A stretch of DNA of 64,000 nt from the NCBI GenBank assembly GCA_000004695.1, contig CM000155.2:768001-832000 (forward strand). The letters are read 5' to 3'. Shown one piece after another: positions 9,729 to 57,246 of the stretch; positions within the stretch are counted from its first letter, which is position 1, and each line of letters begins with the position of its first letter. This DNA comes from Dictyostelium discoideum. Lineage: Eukaryota. The translations under genes were made by a program, and so were the position numbers. The notes under the pieces are model-generated. The model did no database searches. It saw only the letters and a list, made by a program, of their open reading frames with translations, and was not told where the DNA came from.

Positions 9729-11364
9729 TTATTCACCAAATACCAATTTTGAAATTTTTTGGCTGGAATCAATTCTTTCGTAATTTCCATAATTTTTGGA
9801 AGCCGATAAAGGATAACTTTTTCTCTTTTTTGATTGTTTTGTTGGTGTTTCAACAATTGGTTCAATGATTACACTAATTTCTATATCTTCAAGTTTGATT
9901 TCACCATTTTCAGATTCTCTCTGTTTATATTCTGGACTGCAATTATATTTTGAAGGAGTATAATTACTATTATTCTTGTTATTACTTATATTTATAAAAT
10001 TGTTAATATCAATACTTAATAACTTGTTTGGTGTTATATTTTTTAATGGCGTTTGAGTTTGCTGCTGTTGTTGTGGTGATAATCTTAGTCTATGTGGTGT
10101 TTGTCTTAGTAATGGTAATTGAGGTGTCTTTTGGATTGGTGATTGGTTTGGTGTTTTTGGTTGTGTTTGTTTTGGTGTCTTTTGGATTGGTGATTGATTT
10201 GGTGTTTTTGGTTGTTGTTCTTTTGGTGTTTGTTTTGGTGTCTTTTGAATTGGTGATTGGATTGGTGTTTTTGGTTGTTGTTGTTGTTCTTCTTCTGGTG
10301 TTTGTTTTGGTGTCTTTTGAGTTGGTGATTGATTTGGTGTTTTTGGTTGTTGTTCTTCTGGTGTTTGTTTTGGTGTCTTTTGAATTGGTGATTGATTTGG
10401 TGTTTTTGGTTGTTGTTCTGGTGTTTGTTTTGGTGTCTTTTGGATTGGTGATTGAATTGATGTTTTTGGTGGTTGTTGTTGTTGTTGTTCTGGTGTTTGT
10501 TTTGGTGCCTTTTGAATTGGTGATTGAATTGGTGTTTTTGGTTGTTGTTCAAGTGTTTTTGGTTGTTCAGATATTTGTGGTTGAGGTTGTTTTGGTGTTT
10601 GTGGTTGTTGATGATTTGAAAGAGGTAAAATAATTGGTGATAGGGATTGGTTTAATTTTGGTAGTTTTAAAGGTTGCGATAGTGATTGTTGTTTTTGTTG
10701 TTGCTGTTTTTTAATCTTTTGTTTTTTTGGAGTATTATAGATTTCTTTTTCTTGATCACTAAATTCATCGTCATCATCGTCATCATCATTACAGTCGTAA
10801 ACACTAAAATCATATTTACGAGAAGGTTTTGGAGAGATTAATGGTGTTTGACTTGTTCTGAAGCCACCAGATTTCTTTATTGAAGAGTTTACTTTTAATG
10901 GTGAGAAAGCGAATTGTTGATTTAATGAAGTTGGTGATTGAGTTTGTGTTGTAGTTGTTGTTGTTGTTGTTGTTATTTTACTTGAGAATCTATTATAAAT
11001 ATTTAAATGTGAAGGTGATGAATGTACCTTTGAAATTGTTCTTTTAGTTGGTGATCTTGAGAATGGATCTTTAATTAATGGTAATTTAATACCACTACCA
11101 CTACCACCATCACCACCACCACCACCAATAAAATCATTTTCATCAAATAAATTTAATAATGGTGATTTAAATAATGGTGTTGCAGAGTTATTACCACTAC
11201 TACTATTTGTAGAAGACAATAGAGGTCTTTTAATTGGTGTTTTAAATACTTGATTATCATCAATATCATCATTGCTTATATTACTAAGATTTAATGATGA
11301 TGAAGATGATGTTTCACTATCAAAACTTGTATTTAAACTTGTATTGGTACTGTTGTTGTTATTT

Positions 11365-11412
<48 letters not shown>

Positions 11413-11520
11413 GTCAATATGACCTTAATGATTTGATCAACTGGCCAAACCTTATTATTTAATTTTAATGATTTATTGGTATCATTTTTATTATTATTAT
11501 TATCTATATCTTTTTCATTA

Positions 11521-11603
<83 letters not shown>

Positions 11604-12234
11604 GTTATTATTAATTAATTGAATAGTCATAAAATTTTGAATTATATTAATTTTACAAGTTGAAGTAGTATTTGAGGAAGCAAATTGATTTAATGCAATT
11701 TGTGTACATTTTGTATTTGATAAATAAATGGTTGATAAAGAAGGGAATTGAAGAAATATTGGTAATGATTGATTTGAAATAAAAGAATTTGATAGATTAA
11801 TTATTGATAAACTTTGAAATGGTTGAATTGAAATTGAACCACCATGATTGTAATTGTTTAATTGATTTTGAAATTGTGTACAAATGGAATGATCTGTGAA
11901 TGGAACGTTTCTAGCTACCAATTCTTTTAGTCTACTTAGTACCATTAGATATTTAAATGCTTGGTCATTTAAATTCAAATTATTCGATATATCCAATTGT
12001 TCAAGTCTTGTCATAAAACCAATATACTTTAATGATCTATTGGTAATTCTACAACAATTTGATATATCCAATTCTGTTAACTTTGGTAACCCTTTTAAAT
12101 ATTTTATACCTTTATCTTCTAATTTATTTGAATTTGATAAATTTAAAAATCTAATTGTTTTAATTCCTTTTAAAAATAAAAATAAAAATAAAAATAAAAA
12201 TAAAATATATTAATATATAAAGTAAAAGTGAATG

Positions 12235-12324
<90 letters not shown>

Positions 12325-12773
12325 TTAGGTATAAACTTACTTGAAATGTTTAAACAATGATTATTTGAAACAAAATTTGATTTTAAATCTAAAAATGTTA
12401 TAAAATGAAGAGGTATTGATAATGAAAGTTGATAAAGTATATCAACACTTAATTTATTTCTTTCAATTAATGCTTTAATTAATGTGTTATAAAATTTAAT
12501 TTTATTATTATTATTATTTTTATTATTTTTATTTTTAGTTATTGTAGAGATTTCATATAATTTTGAAAGTGGTGCATCTTCACTTCTATTAATACTTTCA
12601 AAACTATTGTCATTATAATATTCTTCATCATCATCATCTTCACCATTTTCATTATCATTTAAATTATTATTATTATTATTATTATAATCTGTGATATTTT
12701 CTAAAAAATATTCATCATTAGTTTTTACAAATGAATTGATTCTATCTAAACAGAGATTAAATAATGAATTCAT
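9729..12773 (-). CDS. Leucine-rich-repeat (F-box/LRR-like) protein with poly-Asn, Ser-rich and C-terminal Pro/Gln-rich tandem-repeat regions, ~960 aa. Two exons: join(12331..12773,9729..12166) on the minus strand.
   Basis: Exon 1 (MNSLFNLCLDRINSFV...LDLKSNFVSNNHCLNIS) ends in phase 1 at a GTAAGT donor. The intron 12167..12330 holds the (TA)n tract. The acceptor ...AAAAG joins in frame to RIKTIRFLNLSNSNKLEDKGIKYLKGLPKLTELDISNCCRITNRSLKYIGFMTRLEQLDISNN, which reads as LRR units. The C-terminal half has about eight 21-aa repeats, TPKQTPEEQQPKTPNQSPIQK. Confidence 0.6.
10100..10560 (-). repeat. 63-nt (21-codon) coding tandem repeat, ~8 copies, inside the LRR-protein CDS.
   Basis: The translated minus strand gives ...QQPKTPIQSPIQKTPKQTPEQ / QPKTPNQSPIQKTPKQTPEEQ... 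The plus strand shows the matching periodic ggtgtttttggttgtt... pattern. The antisense ORFs 10028..10633(+) and 10106..10552(-) are artefacts of this repeat. Confidence 0.85.
12239..12309. repeat. (TA)n dinucleotide repeat, ~35 units, inside the intron of the LRR-protein gene.
   Basis: Direct reading; the tract lies within the proposed intron 12167..12330. Confidence 0.95.
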
Positions 12774-12897: not shown

Positions 12898-12952
12898 GTG
12901 GCGCCAATTAAAAAAGTTGTTTATAATAATTTTAAAATATTTGGCGCCAAAG
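12898..12952. promoter_or_regulatory. Pair of E2F-type GC-core motifs (GTGGCGCCAATT and the palindromic TTTGGCGCCAAA) 125-180 bp upstream of the LRR-protein gene start.
   Basis: TTTGGCGCCAAA at 12940-12951 is a perfect palindromic TTTSGCGCSAAA E2F consensus. GGCGCCAA recurs at 12900-12907. These GC hexamers are very rare in this ~78% AT window. Confidence 0.45.
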
Positions 12953-27614: not shown

Positions 27615-30600
27615 TTATTTATTATTTATTTATTATTTATTTATTATTTTTTAGATAAAATATATTAAAGGTACATTTTTTGTAATTAGACCAGATGAAA
27701 CATCAAAAGAACCATTTTGGATAGCATATGCATTAGAAGATGTACCAGCAAAGAATAAAGAAGTTTATGTTCGTTGGTTAACAGTATCAGATGAAGATGA
27801 GACTGAATATAAGGTTGGACCAGAGTCGTCATCATCAAATATTCCAATTGAATCAATTATAGTTACAACAACATTAAAAGCCAATTCTAAACAAGAAAGT
27901 TCATATAGAATTTCAAAAATTGAACTTAGAAGAGTCAATACAATTGTTGAAAATGAATCATCATCAGAAGAAGAAGAGGAAGAGGAAAGTAATGGTGAAG
28001 AAGAGAAAGAAGGTAATGCTCAAGAATCAGGATCAGAATCTGAAGAATCAGAATCTGAATCTGAAGTTCCAGTAAAGAAAACCAAAAAACAATTGGTAGA
28101 AGAACAAAAGAAATCAGCTGCTGCAGCTAAAAAATTACAAAAAGAAAAAGAGAAAGAGAAAGAGAAAGAGAAAGCAAAGAAATTAAAAGAAAAAGAAAAA
28201 GAAAAAGAAAAAGCAAAGAAACAAAAAGAGAAAGAGAAAGAAAAAGCAAAGAAATTAAAAGAAAAGGAAAAAGAAAAGAAAAAAAAAAATTCTGAATCTG
28301 AAAAACCAAAGAAATCAAATAAATCAAAGAAACAAGAAGATACTGAAAATGAATCGGAATCGGAATCAGAATCAGAATCAGAATCTTCTTCTAGTGAGTC
28401 TGAAAAAGAAGAATCATCAAAGAAATCATCCTCCAAAAAGAAAACCACCACCAAAGAAAAATCAAAACCAACCAAAAAATCAAAGAAACAAGAAACTGAA
28501 GATGAAGAAGAGAGTGGTAGTGATGAATCATCAGGTGATGACGATGAAAAATCATCAAGTGATGAGGATGAAAGAGAGAAGAAATCATCAAAGAAATCGT
28601 CAACTGCTGCTAATGGTAAACCACAAGAAATTAAACCAATAGTTAAGAAATCAACTGGTAAAAGAAAAAAGAATGAGGATTCAGATGCATCATCAGGTGA
28701 TGAGGAAGAGGAGGAGGAAGATAAAACTACAACCAAGAAATCAAAGGGAAAAGGTGGGGAATCTAAAAAAGTTGTTAAAGAAAAAGTGACAAAAGTTGCA
28801 AAGCCAACCAAAGCATCAATTAAAGCACAAACCAAGAAAGGTAATCCAAATCCAGCAATCCCAGTTTTAGAGGTTGATCCAGGTTTTGAGTGGGCAAAGA
28901 CAGCCACCACTTTATCAGATTTCTGTTGTTCAATTTGTAGAAGTAGAGAAGCTAGCAAAGCTATCATTGAAAACAATATTCCATTATTAAAAGAGATCAT
29001 CAAAGAGAATCGTTACAATTCTCTTCTCTCCAATTGGTCAAGTGGTTTGGAGAAATCACCATTACACTATGCTATCATCAACAATAACATTGAAGCAATT
29101 GAACTCGTCTATAAAGATGCAAAGGATGAAGCTAAACTAAGACCATCATTACCAAATTTTGATAAAGCTTCAACTGGTACTTACTCAAAATATACTTATG
29201 GTCATAATGTTAGAGCTTTAACTCAATCAAGAGGTGGTAAAGAAGGCGATGAAGCTTTCTTACACGATTCAAATAATTATCAAGAACATGAAGTAAGTTT
29301 TATAGTTATTATTAGAAAAAAAAAAAAAAAAAAAAAACTAATTTTTATTATTTTATTTTTTAAAGTTAACTTTAGAAGTTCAACAAACAAATATTATACA
29401 ATTAATATTTTCAAATAGTTGTGTAAAAATGACAACTATTCAAGAATTATTTAGATTAGATCCAACATTGAATGATAATGTTTCATATAATATTTATTAT
29501 GCTGTTAGAGCAGGTAATTTAGAGGTTAGTGAACATTTTGTAAAGGATTTATTTAAGAGGGGTGGATTTGGTTTTAATAATTTACATTCACAAGCATTAA
29601 GTGTTGATGGTAATGAAGAGTTTCTACCATTTAAATCGGTATCGGTTACAAAGAAACCAAACTTTGGTAATGTTACACCAATTCATTTCGCAGCAATCAA
29701 TCCAAAAGGAAAATATTTGAAACAATTGTTGGATGTTTTATCAGAACCTTCAAGACCAGATCATAACTCATTCAGACCACTTCATTATGCTGCCGCTTGT
29801 ACAGCACCTGTCAATATTCAATTGTTAACCAGTAAAGGTGTTGAATTAAATGATTTAAATTCATTGGGTATGACACCATTGATGATCGCATCTCAATTGG
29901 GCAGAGTTCAAAATATTAAAGCATTGGTAAAAGCTTCAAAAGAAAGACAAATTGTAAACTTTGTTAAATTTAAAAATAAGAAATTACAAGATGCTCTTCA
30001 TTTCGCCGCTGAGGCAGGTCAATTGGGTTCAATTCGTACTCTTTTAGAGGAGGGTGCTGATATTGATGTCTTTGAAAAAGGTACCAAATACACCGCATTA
30101 ATGAAAGCTTCAATTATGGGTCATTTCGATGCAGTAAAGATTTTGGTTGAAGAAGGTAAAGCTGATGTTGAAAAGAAGGATAAATTCAAGAGAACCGCTT
30201 TAGTATTGGCTGCCATCAATGGTCATATTAAGATTGTTTCTTTCCTTTTACATTATAATGCCTCCTTTAAGGTTATTGATAGTTCAAAGAATTCCATTTT
30301 ACATTTCACAGCTGCCTATGGTTGGATTGATATCATTCGTTATTTGGTTGAACAATTTCAAGCTCCAATCAATGAATTCAATGATTGGAAAACCACTCCA
30401 TTATCGGTTGCAATTCGTAAAGGTCATTTCCAATGTACAAAATACCTTTTGGATAAAGATGCCGATGCAAATGTTACAGATGAAAACAATAGAAGTATCT
30501 TGCTACAATCATTGGTTAATTCATCATTGTCAATGGCTCTCATGGAGAATATTAAATATTTGATCGTTCAAGGTAAAGCCAATGTAAATCATCAAGATAA

Positions 30601-33600
30601 AGATTTAAATGGTGTTTTACATGTTTTATCATTGGCCGAGATTGAACTTCCAGGTGAAGTAAAAGAAAAACAACCAAACTATTATTGGGGTAGACAAGCA
30701 AAACCAGCTGAAGATCCAGTTAAAGCTGAAAAACGTTTACAAGATCAATTAAAGATTGTCGAGGAGATTGCAAACTATCTCATCTCTAAAGGTGCCAGTG
30801 TCAATAGTAAGAATAAAGATGGTTGCACACCATTGATGTTGGCATTCCAAGAAAAGAACATTCCAATCATTATCTATCTCTTGGGTAGAAGTGATGTTTC
30901 ATTGGTTGGTACCTATAGCTCAACTAAATCAAATATCTTACATGACATTATGAAACTTGATGATAGTTTACACTTTTCAAAGATTACAGATTTATTATTA
31001 AAATCAAAGGATTTGAAAACTATTATCAATCAATACAATAAAGAACATCTTACACCATTAATGTCAATCATTAAAAACTTTAAATCTGATACCACTGAAA
31101 AGAATGAAAAATTCTTCAAATTCTTACGTTCACTCATTTCAAATGCTAAGCCTGATCTATCTTTAGTTGAAGAGAAATTAGTCATTGATGCTGATTCAAT
31201 GGATGAATCTGATGATCATCATAATACAAGTAATATTAGTCATAATAGTAGTGATGATGATAATTCAGATAATGGTTCAGATGATGATGATAATTTAGAT
31301 GATGATGATGATAATTCAGATGGTAATTCAGATAACGATGATGATAACAATAGTGATAATGAAGAACATGGTAAAAATAAGGATGATAAAGAATTAATAC
31401 TTAAACGTTCAGTTTTACACTTTGCAGTTCAAACTGGTTCATTAAATATTGTTCAAATTTTATTAGAATTTAAACCAAAAGATATTGATCAATTAAATGT
31501 TTATAGTGAAACAGCACTTCATAATGCAATCGATGGTAATCATTTCCAAATTGCTTTCCTTTTAGTAGATAGTGGTGCCAATGTAAAGATTTCAAATTCA
31601 TTCGAACGTTCACCATTACATTTGGCTTGTGCTAAAATGAATTTCCCATTGATTAAGAAATTAGCATCAAAAGGATCACCAATCAATAAACAAGATTTCA
31701 AAGGTTTAACACCATTGATGATTGCATGTCAAAACAAGGGTAACATTTCCGATGAAGCTTTAGAGGGTGAGGATAATCCAATCTCAATCCTCTTACAAAA
31801 TGGTGCAGATCCAAAGATTGTTGATTCAAAGAAAAGAAATGCTTTACATTATAGTATCAATGCTAGTGGTGCCGATACAAATTCATCCTTTGAAATTGAA
31901 GATCTCTTAATTAAACATAAAGCACCTTTGAATGAAGTCGATTATTTAGGAAGAACTCCACTACATTATGCTTTCATCAAGATTGGTTCACGTTTCATCG
32001 ATAATGGTACCTCTTATGATCCAGTTCAAGTGGTAAGTTCATTATGTTCCTTTGAATCCATTCAAATCGATAAACCTGATAAATTTGGTAGATCACCTTT
32101 ATTCTATGCTTGTCAACATGGTAGTACCGTTTCTGCTCTCCTCTTAATTCAAAGAAAAGCTGATATTAATCGTGTTGATGAAGATGGTAATACACCTTTG
32201 GCTATCACTCTCTTATTTAAACACCCAGATTGTGCTATCAATGTAATTCAAAAAGGTGCAAATGTTAAAGGTACTTTAACTAAATTCAATTATAAAATTA
32301 CTAAAACTGAAACTCCATGGAAAACTGAAACAACAACAACAACAACAACTCCAAATGGTGCCACCACCACCACCACTACTACTACCACTACCACTACCAC
32401 TGCTAGTACTTCAACAACAGCATCAGCAAATATACTTCCTCAAGTTGCAGCTCCATTAAATAGAGGTAGAATTAGTAGAGCTCAACATTCAAATGCTGCC
32501 ATTCAAGAACCTAAAATTCCACATTATAAACAACCAATGAAAGTCGAATATAAAGTTGAAAAGATTAATGTTTGTAAGGTTGGTTTATTCTATCATGTTG
32601 TATCAAATAATTGGCAAGGTGTTGCCTATATTATGTTGGACTCTGGTTTAGATAATTTCAGTGCACTTCATGATGCATTCAAAGCTGATAAATATCAATT
32701 GGCTCTAACTTTATTATCAAAATGTCGTTCAGCTGCTGAATTATCACCATTATCACCAGAATCAAAACAAAACCTTTTCCATTTCATTGGTATGTACCCA
32801 TCATCTGTTGCCAATTGGAGTGCTCGTGTTCAACAAAAATTATTATCATCTGGTGTTTCACCAAATCTCACTGATTCCACTGGTAGAACTCCACTTCACT
32901 ATGCAGCTGTCTCTGAAAATGTTCCATTCACTCAATTCTTATTGACTCAAAAATTAAACATTAATCAACAAGATAAGGAAGGTAATACACCATTATCATT
33001 GGCATTGATAAAGATTAAAACTCCAACTCCAATAACTAGTGATACTCAACAACAACAAAGCACTGAAGATATTATCAAGAATTTCGTTTTACCAGCAGAG
33101 TTCAAATTATTATTAACCAATTTACCAAATTTAGAATTGAAATTCAAATATGAAGAGAATGAAATCACTCCATTAATTTATGCTATCAATATTAAAAACA
33201 TTGGTTTAATTGGTACTTTATTGAATTCAAAAGCAAACATCAATACAGTCGATGCACTTGGTCAACCACCACTTTTCCATGCAGTTAAAACAAATAAAAT
33301 GGATATTGTCAACTTGATACTCTCAAAGAAACCAAATATGAATATTCAAGATACCGATAAGAAATCTGTTATTCATTATGTAGTTAATCCAACTGAATAT
33401 GGTTCATTTGAAAATGTTACCCTTTTGAATCTATTGGCTAAACAAGGTTCTAAAATCGATTTAGCAGATATCGCTGGTAAAACACCATTATACTATGCAT
33501 CATTACAAGATTCTGGTAAGATGAAAGACGCTTTAATTAAATTGGGTGCAAAGAAGATTCCTCAAGAAACTTTACCAACTAGAGAAGTTTCAACCATTTC

Positions 33601-35296
33601 CAATTGGTCAGAGCTTAATACAGTCAATTATGAACAAGATTATAATAAATACATTGAAACCAAGAAAGAATTAATGGCTGCAAGCAATAAACAATTGAAA
33701 CCACTCGTTGATCCAATCTCAAGAATGCAAGAGAATTCTGAAGTATATGTCGATTCAAATGGTTTAATCTTTGACATTCTTATGACTAAAGTCGATGCTA
33801 AACGTGGTAATTGGGGTGAGAATAATTTCTACAAAATGCAAATCATTTACAATCCTGGCTTGGATAGATATTTCTTATGGAATCGTTGGGGTAGAATTGG
33901 TGATGTTGGTCAATATCAAAAGACACCATTCAGTAAGGATGAAGCAGTCACTGAATTTTGTAAAGTTTTCAAAACCAAGAGTGGCAATGCTTTCAATCTC
34001 GATTCAATGTCCAATTTCCAAAAGATTGAAGGGCGTTATCATTTGGTACACATCGATAGAACTGATAAGACAAAGAAAGAGATCCTCCACCCATTCGTTC
34101 TCTCTCAATATCCAAAATCACAATTACCAAAAGAACTCTATGATGTTATGGCTCAATTCTGTAATGTTGAATCAATCTCTCATCAATTGAAAAATCTTAA
34201 AATCGATACTGATATTATGCCATTGGGTCGTATTAGTAAAGATCTCATTCAAAAAGCCATTACAGTATTGGGTAAACTTAGTGAAGCAGTTGAACAAATT
34301 CGTTTGATCGAAGAGCACGAAGCCAATAAAAGAGCATCCTCTTTTACTAATGCTACAACTGTTGGTAGTGGTGTTAGTGGTAGTGGTGGTGATTCAACTT
34401 CTACCACTGATAAACCAGAGGAACCAAATTTCCCACCACTCAATGATGTCAAAGAATCCTTAATTAAACTTAGTAATGAATTCTATGAATTAATTCCTCA
34501 TTCAAACTTTTCCACCGAAAGAATGGTCATTTTGAAGAGTGCCAAAGAGATAACCGCCAAAACAACCCTCTTACAAAACTTGGATGAACTTGAGACCGTT
34601 TCAAAGATTTTGATTGCCGCTCACCAAAATACCACAATGCATCCATACGATTATTGTTTCAAAGCTCTTGGTGCCTCTTTGGAGAAATTGGATGCCAACT
34701 CTCCAGAATTTGGTATCCTTAAAAAGTACTCCGAGAATACCGGTTGCACAAAGAAGATTGTAAATATTTTCAAACTCCAAAGAAAAGGAGAGGTTGAAAG
34801 ATTCCAAGCTCATAAAAATCTCAAGAATCATTTCCTACTATGGCATGGTAGTTTAACAACAAACTATCTCTCCATTTTATCTCAAGGCTTAAAGATTGCT
34901 CCACCAGAGGCTCCAGTCACTGGTTATATGTTTGGTAAAGGTATTTATTTCTCTGATATGTTTAGAAAATCTATAAACTATTGCGGTAGTTGGGATAGTT
35001 CTTCAGCAAATAGTTTCCTCTTACTCTCAGAGGTAGCTTTGGGTACAATGAAAGAATTTAAAAGCGCTCACTATATGGAATCCCCTGAAACTGGTACAAA
35101 TAGTACTAAAGGTGTAGGTAAAACTGGTCCAAACTTTGACGATAGTATCATTTTAAATAATGGTGTTGCAATTCCTCTCTCTCCTCCAGAACAAGTTAAA
35201 GGTGATACTTCCGATTATCACTTGGAAATGAATGAATATATTGTTTATGACGTTTCTCAAATTAGAATGAGATATTTAGTTGAAGTTTCAAATTAA
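27337..35296 (+). CDS. Ankyrin-repeat / WGR / PARP-regulatory / PARP-catalytic poly(ADP-ribose) polymerase (PARP1-clade catalytic domain). Proposed 3-exon model: join(27337..27378,27655..29292,29366..35296), ~2500 aa. Minimal certain part is 29429..35296 (1955 aa).
   Basis: ORF 29429..35296 has about 20 ANK repeats, then a WGR domain (NFYKMQIIYNPGLDRYFLWNRWGRIGDVGQ), the helical regulatory domain, and the catalytic H-Y-E triad (LLWHGSLTTNYLSILSQGLKIAPPEAPVTGYMFGKGIYFSDMF ... LLLSEVALG ... NEYIVYDVSQIRMRYLVE), nearly identical to the PARP1 active site. The reading frame stays open upstream of its first ATG (LTLEVQQTNIIQLIFSNSCVK-MTT...). A phase-0 AG acceptor at 29364-65 matches a phase-0 GTAAGT donor at 29293, right after ...SNWSSGLEKSPLHYAIINNNIEAIELVYKDAKDEAKL, which is an ANK repeat in ORF 28093..29418. 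That ORF continues upstream in frame to a TTTTTTAG acceptor at 27654 (IKYIKGTFFVIRPDETSKEPFWIAYALEDV...VYVRWLTVSDEDETEYKVG, BAH-like), then KEKEKEK / SESESE charged low-complexity. The first micro-exon (MATSIKRGDPQSEK) uses a weak GTCAAA donor, so the 5' end is tentative. Confidence 0.7.
27490..27650. repeat. (TTTA)n / (ATTT)n tetranucleotide array within the proposed first intron of the PARP gene.
   Basis: Direct reading: tatttatttatttattt... with a few phase slips. A similar array is at 55651..55715. Confidence 0.85.
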
Positions 35297-47671: not shown

Positions 47672-51063
<3,392 letters not shown>

Positions 51064-51261
51064 CTCTTTTTTTTTTTTTTATTTATTAATTTATTTATTT
51101 ATTAATTTATTTATTTATTTATTTATTTATTTGTTTATATATATATAAAAAAAAAAAAAAACGAGGGTGGATGAAGATGATAAAAAAAAAAAAAAAAAAA
51201 TAAAAAAAAATTTTGAATTTATAAAAAAAAAAATTTCATTTGTAAAATTTTTTTCTGTGGG

Positions 51262-51274
51262 ATTGGCGCCAAAT
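51262..51274. promoter_or_regulatory. E2F-type motif ATTGGCGCCAAAT ~200 bp upstream of the exportin-2 (cse1) start, next to a TATAAATA element.
   Basis: It has the same GGCGCCAA core as at 12900/12943. The TATA-like ctataaataaaaat follows at 51276-51289. Confidence 0.4.
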
Positions 51275-51812
51275 GACTATAAATAAAAATAAAAATTAAA
51301 AAAAGGAGAAAGAAGAAAAAACTAACCTAAAAAATAACAATTTTGGATAAAAAAAAAAAAATAAATAAAAAATAAAAAATATAAATAGAGATATTATTTA
51401 TTTATTTATTAATTTTTTTTTGTTTACTATTATTTTTTTTTGGTAACAATTAGATCCACATTTTCAATGGTTTTTTTTTTTTTTTTTTTTTTTTTTTTGT
51501 TTAGGGTCTAAATTTCAAGTTGTTAATTTGTATTATATTTTGAGTCCACTCTCCAATCATTTTCAAATAAAAACATTGGTGAATTTTTTTTTAATTTTTT
51601 TTTTTTTTTTTTTTTTTCTCCTAACTGAAAAAAAAAAAAAAAACACAAAATATCTTTTTATTTTTTTATTTTTTTTTTATTTTTTTTTTTGTTAAAAATA
51701 AAGTAATTTTGGTTGTATTTTTAAAAGTGACTTGTAAAATTAAAAAAATAAAATAAAATAAAATAATATAGTAATAATAATAAAATAAAGAATAAAAAAA
51801 AAAATAAAAAAA

Positions 51813-55915: not shown

Positions 55916-57224
55916 GAAAGGTTTATTACTAACCTATTTATTTAATATAAAATTTATAATAAAAAAAAAAAATTTAAAATAAAAAAAAAAAAAATAAAAA
56001 AAAAAATTTGCAAATTAAAAATAAATTAAAATTTTTGATTGGTAAATTATGTTTATTTTTATATTTTTTCTAATTTTTTTTCTAATTTTTTTTTAATTTC
56101 CTGGAAGTGAATCTCAAATATGTGGTGGTACTTTTTTTTTTTTTTATTTATGAGAAAAAAACATTTAAGTACATACACAATATCTTTTTGGATATTTTTT
56201 AAAAGTTAATTAAAAAAAAAAGAAGGAAATAGGGAAAAAAAAAAAATAATAAATGTTTTATAGCTATTTCTTTTTTATTTGTTTTAAATTTTTATTTATT
56301 TTTATTTATTTATTTTTGTTTTTGTTTTTGTTTTTGTTTTTGTTTTTGTTTTTGTTTTTGTTTTTGTTTTTGTTTTTGATAAAAAAAAAAAAAAAAAATC
56401 TTTTTGGGTTATTGTAATGAAATTTAAAAATAAAAACCCCTTTTATTGCGATTATTTAATAATAATAAAAAAAAAAAAAAAAAAAAATTAAATTATTGAA
56501 CAATTGTTGAATTGTTTTTTTTTTTGTTTTTTTTTTTTTTAAAAAATAATTAAAAAAAAAAAAGAAAAAAAAAAAAAAAAAAAAAAAAAACACTGTTTAA
56601 TCTGGTGGCCAAAAGAAAATATAACTAAAAAAAAAAAAAAAAAGGCGGGAACTTGTGAATTGAGGAGTGATGGTGATATGATATGATATGATATGTCATG
56701 ATTTTATTTTTTGGATTGGGTGTATGTAGTTTTTGAATTTTAATTTTATTATCTTTTTTTTTATTTTTTTTTTTTTTTTTGTGTTTGCATATATGAAACT
56801 ATTATTTTTTATTATTTTACTTATTATTAATTTATTATCATTATTTTTTTTTTATTTTTTTTTTTTTTTTATTATTTTATTTATTATTAAAGAAAAAGAA
56901 AAAATAATAATAATAATAATAAAAAAAAAAAGATTTATTTATTTTTACTTTACCTAAAATGTTTAAATTATTTTTAACTTGATAGTGAATGTGTGTGTGT
57001 ATGTGTGTATGTGTGTATGAGATTAATTAAAATGAAATTTTATTGAATATATATATAAAATAAAGTAATAAAGTTGTGAATATTTATTTGATTTTTGTAA
57101 CCGTTATAATTGTTGTTGAAAAAATAAAATTAAAAAAAAAAAAAAAAAAAAAAATAAAAAAAATGTGGAAGGATTTTTTTTTTGAATTTGAAAATAAAAT
57201 ATTTTTTTAATTTTTTTAACAGCT

Positions 57225-57246
57225 TTTGGCGGGAATTTTCGCGAAT
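57225..57246. promoter_or_regulatory. Tandem E2F-type motifs TTTTGGCGGGAA + TTTTCGCGAA in the intergenic region between the Myt1-like kinase gene and wdr92 (~700 bp upstream of wdr92).
   Basis: TTTGGCGGGAA is the classical E2F site sequence and TTTCGCG is the E2F half-site core. A further GGCGGGAAC lies at 56642-56650. Confidence 0.4.

Follow-up and report, generated by a model that had tools for sequence, protein, structure and literature searches.

Which cis-acting element ties the exportin-2 gene of Dictyostelium discoideum (xpo2, or cse1; DDB_G0291838) to the cell cycle is the question raised by a 64-kb stretch of the genome of this amoeba (contig CM000155.2, positions 768,001 to 832,000 of the forward strand), hereafter called the window. 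All coordinates given below are window positions, and the cse1-sense strand is the minus strand. The original prediction, made from the letters of this stretch, proposed an E2F-type and proliferation-linked input to cse1. Support for such an input now comes from a match to the E2F consensus, from conservation, from published repression by the retinoblastoma orthologue RblA and from the co-occurrence of similar cores and RblA-repressed genes along the window. The palindrome at 51263-51272 (TCATTTGGCGCC on the cse1-sense strand) is thus predicted to be a place in the proximal promoter of xpo2 where the E2F/DP heterodimer of Dictyostelium binds, a reading that we regard as quite probable.

The palindrome upstream of xpo2 and its surroundings

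The open reading frames at 47672..51063 encode the Pfam domains IBN_N, Cse1 and CAS_CSE1, and the best match of their product is the 951-aa Exportin-2 of D. discoideum AX4 (DDB_G0291838). Upstream of this gene, ATTGGCGCCAAAT occupies positions 51262-51274 and includes the perfect palindrome listed in Table 1. Read on the cse1-sense strand, positions 51266-51273 give TTTGGCGC, which fits the E2F consensus TTTSSCGC (reverse complement GCGSSAAA), while TTGGCGCC fits, by inspection, the E2F-only class NNSGCGSN with a G before the central CG. Both the TTTSSCGC/GCGSSAAA consensus and the E2F-only class, in which that G is obligatory, have been described previously (PMC4862756). The palindrome is the sole GCGC or CGCG within an intergenic region of 749 bp with a GC content of 13%. 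Its placement in the original prediction, about 200 bp upstream of the minus-strand cse1 ATG and on the correct side of it, agrees with the positions of the site (51263-51272) and of the start codon (51063).

Conservation of the site was assessed in two close relatives, D. citrinum (locus L008) and D. dimigraforme (locus L009), both of which keep the gene order wdr92 - wee - RhoGAP - cse1. The alignment of the intergenic region between RhoGAP and cse1 (alignment A1) has a mean column identity of 76%. On the cse1-sense strand TCATTTGGCGCC is invariant in this alignment and is followed by a further conserved stretch, the site region reading TCATTTGGCGCCTTCAG in D. citrinum and TCATTTGGCGCCCACAG in D. 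dimigraforme. The flank that completes the palindrome in D. discoideum (51263-51264, the AA of GGCGCCAA on the cse1-sense strand) varies, with GGCGCCTT in D. citrinum and GGCGCCCA in D. dimigraforme. Since the palindrome-completing bases are not conserved, selection appears to keep an oriented E2F half-site with its T-run and not the palindrome itself. The cse1 promoter of D. firmibasis was also sought, by way of the wee-like kinase, and no such protein was returned.

In Dictyostelium, a TATA box followed by an oligo-T run is the classical core promoter layout. The candidate TATA box of cse1, TATAAAT read from 51223 to 51217, lies on the gene side of the E2F-type site, is conserved and is followed by oligo-T on the sense strand, and so has all three of the properties sought in such a box; TATAAA(T/A) stands at the corresponding place in all three species of the alignment. 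Beyond the oligo-T run, a conserved block takes a three-species form resembling ATCAyCTTCATCaCCCcTCG, and transcription of cse1 would start near 51165-51181, in which case some 85-100 bp would separate the start from the E2F-type site upstream. The original prediction had pointed instead to a TATA-like element following the site. That octamer, TATAAATA, stands on the side of the site that faces away from cse1. The window contains 42 copies of it, and the one here persists in D. citrinum but is lost in D. dimigraforme; it is unlikely to be the cse1 TATA box.

The same intergenic region separates cse1 from a divergent PH-C2-RhoGAP gene on the plus strand (start 51813; probably DDB_G0291840), which the site could serve in place of cse1 or together with it. 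In D. discoideum the palindromic form of the site gives no clue to its orientation within a region common to both genes, the divergent arrangement of RhoGAP and cse1 is kept in D. purpureum, D. citrinum and D. dimigraforme, and E2F sites can work bidirectionally. The site lies, however, 200 bp from the cse1 ATG as against 541 bp from that of RhoGAP, and a cse1-oriented TATA box with its T-run follows about 40 bp downstream, whereas distant species in which cse1 has other neighbours still have E2F sites upstream of cse1. Besides, the prefix DDB_G029184 retrieves only DDB_G0291842, among the matches listed, from the published table of RblA-repressed genes (PMC3386910). A role confined to RhoGAP, or shared between both genes, therefore seems to us improbable.

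On the RhoGAP side of the intergenic region, at 51500-51630, both D. citrinum and D. dimigraforme preserve three blocks that are not homopolymers. Their cse1-sense sequences are TCAGTTAGGAGAAAAAAA, CAATrTTTTTATTTGAAAATGA(T)TTGGA and AACTTGAAATTwAkACCCwAAACA, without a match in Rfam, and they probably belong to the promoter or 5' untranslated region of the PH-C2-RhoGAP gene. Rfam and tRNA scans of the window returned no non-coding RNA or tRNA genes that might explain conserved blocks. Two further readings of sequence in this intergenic region were considered and set aside. One took TCCCACAG, which adjoins the xpo2 site, for an upstream element of non-coding RNA genes similar to the Dictyostelium upstream sequence element (DUSE); D. 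citrinum has CCTTCAG there and the Rfam and tRNA scans found no RNA gene in the window. The other took the conserved CCACCCTCG block for a SMYD3-type CCCTCC, of which it matches only 5 of 6 positions.

RblA repression and E2F-type cores along the window

Strasser et al. (2012, PLoS One, PMC3386910) applied RNA sequencing (RNA-seq) to a disruptant of rblA, the retinoblastoma orthologue, to a developmental series and to cold-synchronised cells. Among the entries of their Table S2 stands 'DDB_G0291838 (xpo2) ... similar to Cse1', with a fold repression by RblA of 2.4 in growth and 11.08 in development (development p = 0.0046) and with the pattern 'max mid devel' during development. Its pattern in the cell cycle is 'max late G2', so the absence of cse1 mRNA periodicity, which the original prediction had named as an outcome that would speak against it, is excluded by published data. 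The same source describes an activator E2F (DDB_G0284129), DP (DDB_G0276799) and RblA in Dictyostelium, and its table entries on other genes refer to a 'cell-cycle element' and a 'consensus E2F element'.

A simple scheme would accommodate these observations. E2F/DP would occupy TTTGGCGCC in the proximal promoter of xpo2, with the likely TATA box about 40 bp downstream. Once bound, it would recruit RblA, and xpo2 would be held at a low level in differentiating cells and whenever cells are not in the proliferative or late-G2 window. Inactivation or absence of RblA would then release or activate transcription, giving rise to the late-G2 and mid-development peaks. We infer from the sequence and the published expression data that E2F/DP is the binder, that repression through the site is direct, and where the TATA box and the start of transcription lie. 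In the literature searched we found no published binding data for Dictyostelium E2F, no description of the xpo2 site or motif analysis of Dictyostelium E2F, and, in main texts, no mention of the identifiers of the four RblA-repressed genes of the window introduced below.

Identifiers of the form DDB_G02918xx were sought in Table S2 of PMC3386910, and the window genes were counted among the matches listed. On this basis the RblA-repressed genes of the window are xpo2, DDB_G0291842, wdr92 (DDB_G0291822) and DDB_G0291806. The entry of DDB_G0291842 gives an RblA repression of 2.7x/5.2x and 'max late G2'; that of wdr92 gives 10.9x, in development only, with a 'flat' cell-cycle pattern; and that of DDB_G0291806 gives 7.5x/24.7x, 'max late G2' and 'no significant homology' (PMC3386910). 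Among RblA-repressed genes without an assigned function, the repression of DDB_G0291806 is one of the stronger.

Cores of the E2F type occur in three of about 15 promoter-bearing intergenic regions of the window, which are exactly those of these four genes among the matches listed; by our calculation, the chance that the three regions would coincide exactly is about 1 in 455. Upstream of DDB_G0291806, two sites stand 43 bp apart, 125-177 bp from the ATG at 12773. D. firmibasis keeps both of them, as TTTGGCGCCAAA and TTTGGCGCAAA, while D. citrinum keeps the one at 12898-12907 and has lost the one at 12941-12950, where it has CCCTCC, a case of site turnover (alignment A2). In the region between the wee-like kinase gene and wdr92 (56.6-57.2 kb) the cores are GGCGGGAA, found twice, and TTTTCGCGAA. 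TCCCGCC of the core at 56644 is kept in D. citrinum (L008:9203) and in D. dimigraforme (L009:9132), and the tandem sites at 57224-57245 are partly conserved, as TTCGCGAA in the former species and TTTTGGCGGGA in the latter. This intergenic region is unusually long (2.3 kb), and its cores lie 0.7-1.6 kb from the start codons.

The xpo2 promoter thus resembles those of DDB_G0291806, DDB_G0291842 and wdr92 in having isolated E2F-type GC islands in AT-rich upstream DNA, conservation in sister species and repression by RblA. It differs from the first in having one copy of GGCGCCAA where the DDB_G0291806 promoter has two, and from the wee/wdr92 region in that the cores there are GGCGGGAA and TTCGCGAA, at the distances just given, wdr92 moreover being 'flat' and derepressed in development only.

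Assignment of the gene at 9729..12773 to DDB_G0291806 deserves some comment. Nine proteins of the window match AX4 proteins at every residue, including DDB_G0291804, 0291808, 0291810, 0291816, 0291824, 0291842 and 0291854, the WD40 protein DNAAF10/WDR92 and queuine tRNA-ribosyltransferase, and the XP accession numbers of the exactly matched proteins climb with position, in step with the map of 21 genes. For the product of 9729..12773, three gene models and the strain copies found no exact match in a large protein collection and a homology search gave one weak match; low-complexity proteins of this kind may be under-represented in that collection, as these results suggest. A strain annotation likewise predicts a 956-aa product. 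We assign this gene, the sixth of the map, to EAL61524/DDB_G0291806 by elimination: EAL numbers parallel DDB_G numbers, EAL61522/61523 are genes 3/4, EAL61525/61526 are genes 7/8, and of the two genes left between them gene 5 is EAL61547. The label 'no significant homology' of DDB_G0291806 also agrees with a gene that has no Pfam domain and no clear homologue. The C-terminal half of its product (9729-12071, minus strand) is a long array of near-identical PKTP(N/I)QSPIQKTPKQTPE(E)QQ repeats together with poly-N tracts.

Could such cores be GC-rich strings that arose by chance and have no function? The xpo2 motif is short, present as a single copy in its promoter and missing from some orthologous promoters. 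The window as a whole has 23% GC, and its intergenic part, 19.2 kb, has 14%. In the whole window, GGCGCC was observed 4 times with 0.15 expected, and GGCGCCAA gave 5 strand-hits with 0.09 expected. In intergenic DNA, GGCGCC and TTTSSCGC were each found 3 times, with 0.004 and 0.025 expected, respectively, and none of 3000 shuffles reached either count. Against chance stand this excess of 3 over 0.004-0.025, the invariance of the site in two sister species while the AT-rich flanks diverge, and its coincidence with RblA-repressed genes only, among the matches listed. We consider chance a very improbable explanation, and the statement of the original prediction that sharing of the core was hardly coincidental is borne out by the same counts.

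The further statement that the core is common to three promoters stands in part. Exact copies of GGCGCCAA in intergenic DNA occupy three places in two regions (12898-12907 and 12941-12950 before one gene, and the cse1 site), whereas the third promoter region, that of the wee-like kinase and wdr92, carries different E2F-type cores. The third instance counted in the original prediction was probably the coding copy at 506-511. There, the fourth GGCGCC of the window forms Gly-Ala codons (...ILGALD...) in the first exon of a minus-strand gene with its ATG at 624, and is not promoter DNA; from synteny with loci L010 and L011, this gene is putatively of the PCI/COP9 type.

Elsewhere in the window, and unrelated to the E2F site, a 1955-aa open reading frame at 29429-35296 on the plus strand encodes many ankyrin repeats together with WGR, PARP_reg and PARP catalytic domains, and is of the tankyrase-like or PARP type.

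Recurrence in other dictyostelids and the probable identity of the binding factor

In more distant species, a scan covered the 300 bp that precede the annotated ATG of cse1, and elements of the E2F type or related GC-rich strings were found in four of them (Table 1). We take the species in which the element recurs to belong to several major dictyostelid groups. The counterpart in D. purpureum, AAAGCGCT, fails the first S of NNSGCGSN. In T. lacteum, the only E2F-like string of the 11-kb locus is a GGCGCG, in AAAAAAGGCGCGTCAAAAAAAA, within the first cse1 intron at +282 (L005 4281-4286); this intronic GGCGCG may be the equivalent of the upstream site. As judged from these sequences, the cse1 upstream element would recur well beyond chance and yet not universally, as expected of a transcription-factor site under turnover.

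Table 1. Positions of the genes and elements discussed. Coordinates refer to the window or, for the four distant species, to the cse1 ATG of the species concerned.
Feature	Position	Strand	Remarks
Exportin-2 gene (xpo2/cse1, DDB_G0291838)	47672..51063	-	several exons; start codon 51063-51061
Conserved block ATCATCTTCATCCACCCTCG	51162..51181	-	candidate transcription start or 5' untranslated region start, from alignment A1
Oligo-T run	51182..51210	-	between candidate TATA box and conserved block; T-run kept in alignment A1
TATAAAT, candidate cse1 TATA box	51217..51223	-	about 40 bp on the gene side of the E2F-type site
Perfect 10-bp palindrome TTGGCGCCAA	51263..51272	both	E2F-type site, 200 bp upstream of cse1 ATG (51063)
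Conserved 12-mer TCATTTGGCGCC	51265..51276	-	palindrome half invariant in D. discoideum, D. citrinum and D. dimigraforme (alignment A1)
TATA-like TATAAATA of the original prediction	51278..51285	+	cse1-distal side of the E2F-type site
956-aa gene, leucine-rich repeat-like N-terminus	9729..12773	-	no Pfam domain; DDB_G0291806 by elimination
GTGGCGCCAA, sister site 1	12898..12907	.	DDB_G0291806 promoter; present in strain locus L007
TTGGCGCCAA in TTTGGCGCCAAA, sister site 2	12941..12950	both	full palindromic E2F consensus (12940-12951), 168-177 bp upstream of ATG 12773
wee/Myt1-like kinase gene DDB_G0291842	54502..55633	-	exact protein match
GGCGGGAA, E2F-type core	56644..56651	+	2.3-kb wee-like/wdr92 intergenic region
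TTTTGGCGGGAA then TTTTCGCGAA, tandem canonical E2F-type sites	57224..57245	+	about 700 bp upstream of wdr92 ATG 57936
wdr92 DDB_G0291822	57936..59155	+	exact protein match; ATG 57936
C. fasciculata TTTCGCGC	-115		strict E2F consensus, expected 0.015
H. album GCGCGAAA	-183		strict E2F consensus, expected 0.0026
P. violaceum GGCGCGCC and GCGCGC	-254 and -206		GC cluster, 6 SGCGS matches vs 0.26 expected
D. purpureum AAAAGCGCTTAAAA	-126		sole GCGC in 665 bp of 12%-GC DNA; one flank mismatch from E2F core

The site might also be a selected cis-element bound by a factor other than E2F/DP, either one of the 'cell-cycle element' that is specific to Dictyostelium or a complex of the MuvB/LIN54 type, the RblA dependence of xpo2 being then indirect. 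Entries in the table of PMC3386910 name an undefined 'cell-cycle element' and 'smyd3 binding sites', and Dictyostelium has lin54 and other LINC genes which are themselves RblA-repressed according to the same source. Human CSE1L, in turn, has been catalogued with a homology region of cell cycle genes (CHR), bound by LIN54, and not as a classical E2F-site gene (PMC4176359), and D. purpureum retains only AAGCGCTT at the corresponding position. On the other hand, the conserved part of the xpo2 site, TCATTTGGCGCC, is exactly the E2F consensus, T-run included. The classical E2F variants TTTTGGCGGGAA and TTTTCGCGAA occur in other promoters of the window, and a single non-E2F factor is unlikely to share all of these. 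A composite of a CHR and a GC-rich cell cycle-dependent element (CDE), as recognised by DREAM/MuvB, was sought as a conserved TTYGAA at a spacer of 4 nt from the GC-rich part. No conserved TTYGAA stands near the xpo2 site, and a CDE/CHR element was rejected on this ground; the nearest TTTGAA (51213-51218) is 45 bp off and is a string to be expected often by chance where DNA is AT-rich, and neither D. citrinum nor D. dimigraforme keeps it. Binding by a factor outside E2F/DP is in our view unlikely, if somewhat less so than a site serving RhoGAP.

Several points weigh against E2F/DP control of xpo2 through the palindrome. The 749-bp intergenic region is shared with the divergent RhoGAP gene. Derepression of xpo2 in the rblA mutant could be indirect, and in the entry of PMC3386910 its repression in growth is modest (2.4x, p about 1), significance being reached in development only. 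The identity of DDB_G0291806 with the gene at 9729..12773 was reached by elimination, without an exact sequence match. Finally, within the 300 bp scanned upstream of cse1, D. purpureum has no consensus E2F site, and neither A. subglobosum nor T. lacteum has an E2F site.

Pocket-protein control of exportin-2 in an amoebozoan and in animals

The predicted E2F/DP site of xpo2 shares with the Rb-regulated E2F/DP sites of animals and plants (TTTSSCGC/GCGSSAAA) the consensus, including the T-run flank, and a location in the proximal promoter. Palindromic and tandem layouts are also found in both, examples from the window being TTTGGCGCCAAA (12940-12951) and the tandem pair of 57224-57245. Likewise, xpo2 mRNA is derepressed on loss of the Rb orthologue and is cell-cycle periodic, according to the entries of PMC3386910. 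Unlike the organisms in which those sites were described, Dictyostelium has no G1, and its S-phase and mitotic RblA targets peak together in late G2; the xpo2 site, in addition, is the sole GC island of an extremely AT-rich promoter, to which binding of E2F/DP is predicted.

Human CSE1L (CAS) offers the closest comparison. It belongs to a high-confidence list of p53-DREAM targets whose criteria include binding of p130, E2F4, LIN9 and LIN54 in chromatin immunoprecipitation (PMC5729532 Table 1), and it is counted among late cell-cycle genes with a conserved CHR, TTYGAA, bound by LIN54 (PMC4176359 Table 1). The two genes encode orthologous exportin-2 proteins, re-exporters of importin-alpha, and both are proliferation-associated and repressed by pocket proteins of the Rb family, in the human case as a target of DREAM (p130-E2F4-DP-MuvB). 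They differ in that the human gene has a CHR whereas the Dictyostelium gene has an E2F-type site without a conserved CHR, so that the class of cis-element may not be the same. The regulatory parallel with animals drawn in the original prediction hence holds at the level of the Rb-family pathway, CSE1L being a DREAM target, and does not extend to a demonstrated identity of the cis-element, given the CHR of the human gene.

It is conceivable, and we put it forward only tentatively, that control of exportin-2 by Rb/E2F-family proteins was an ancestral feature of the cell-cycle regulon of Amoebozoa and animals, the E2F site having been kept in dictyostelids and replaced or supplemented by a CHR in vertebrates. 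If this were true, recycling of importin-alpha would be among the core processes that the ancestral Rb pathway coordinated with mitosis.

For a gene already published as RblA-repressed, the xpo2 site is the cis-element to be expected, and the finding is sound and unsurprising; what is understood at present of E2F or of cell-cycle control in Dictyostelium is not altered by it. It provides a concrete cis-element for a gene whose RblA dependence came from RNA-seq alone, and with it a clean experimental handle, and it makes CSE1L/xpo2 one well-supported case of a proliferation gene that pocket proteins control in an amoebozoan as well as in animals. Overall, E2F-type GC islands in the 64-kb window mark all four RblA-repressed genes among the matches listed and no other promoter. 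On this evidence, simple scans for such motifs might tell the direct targets of RblA from its indirect ones in the AT-rich genome of Dictyostelium.

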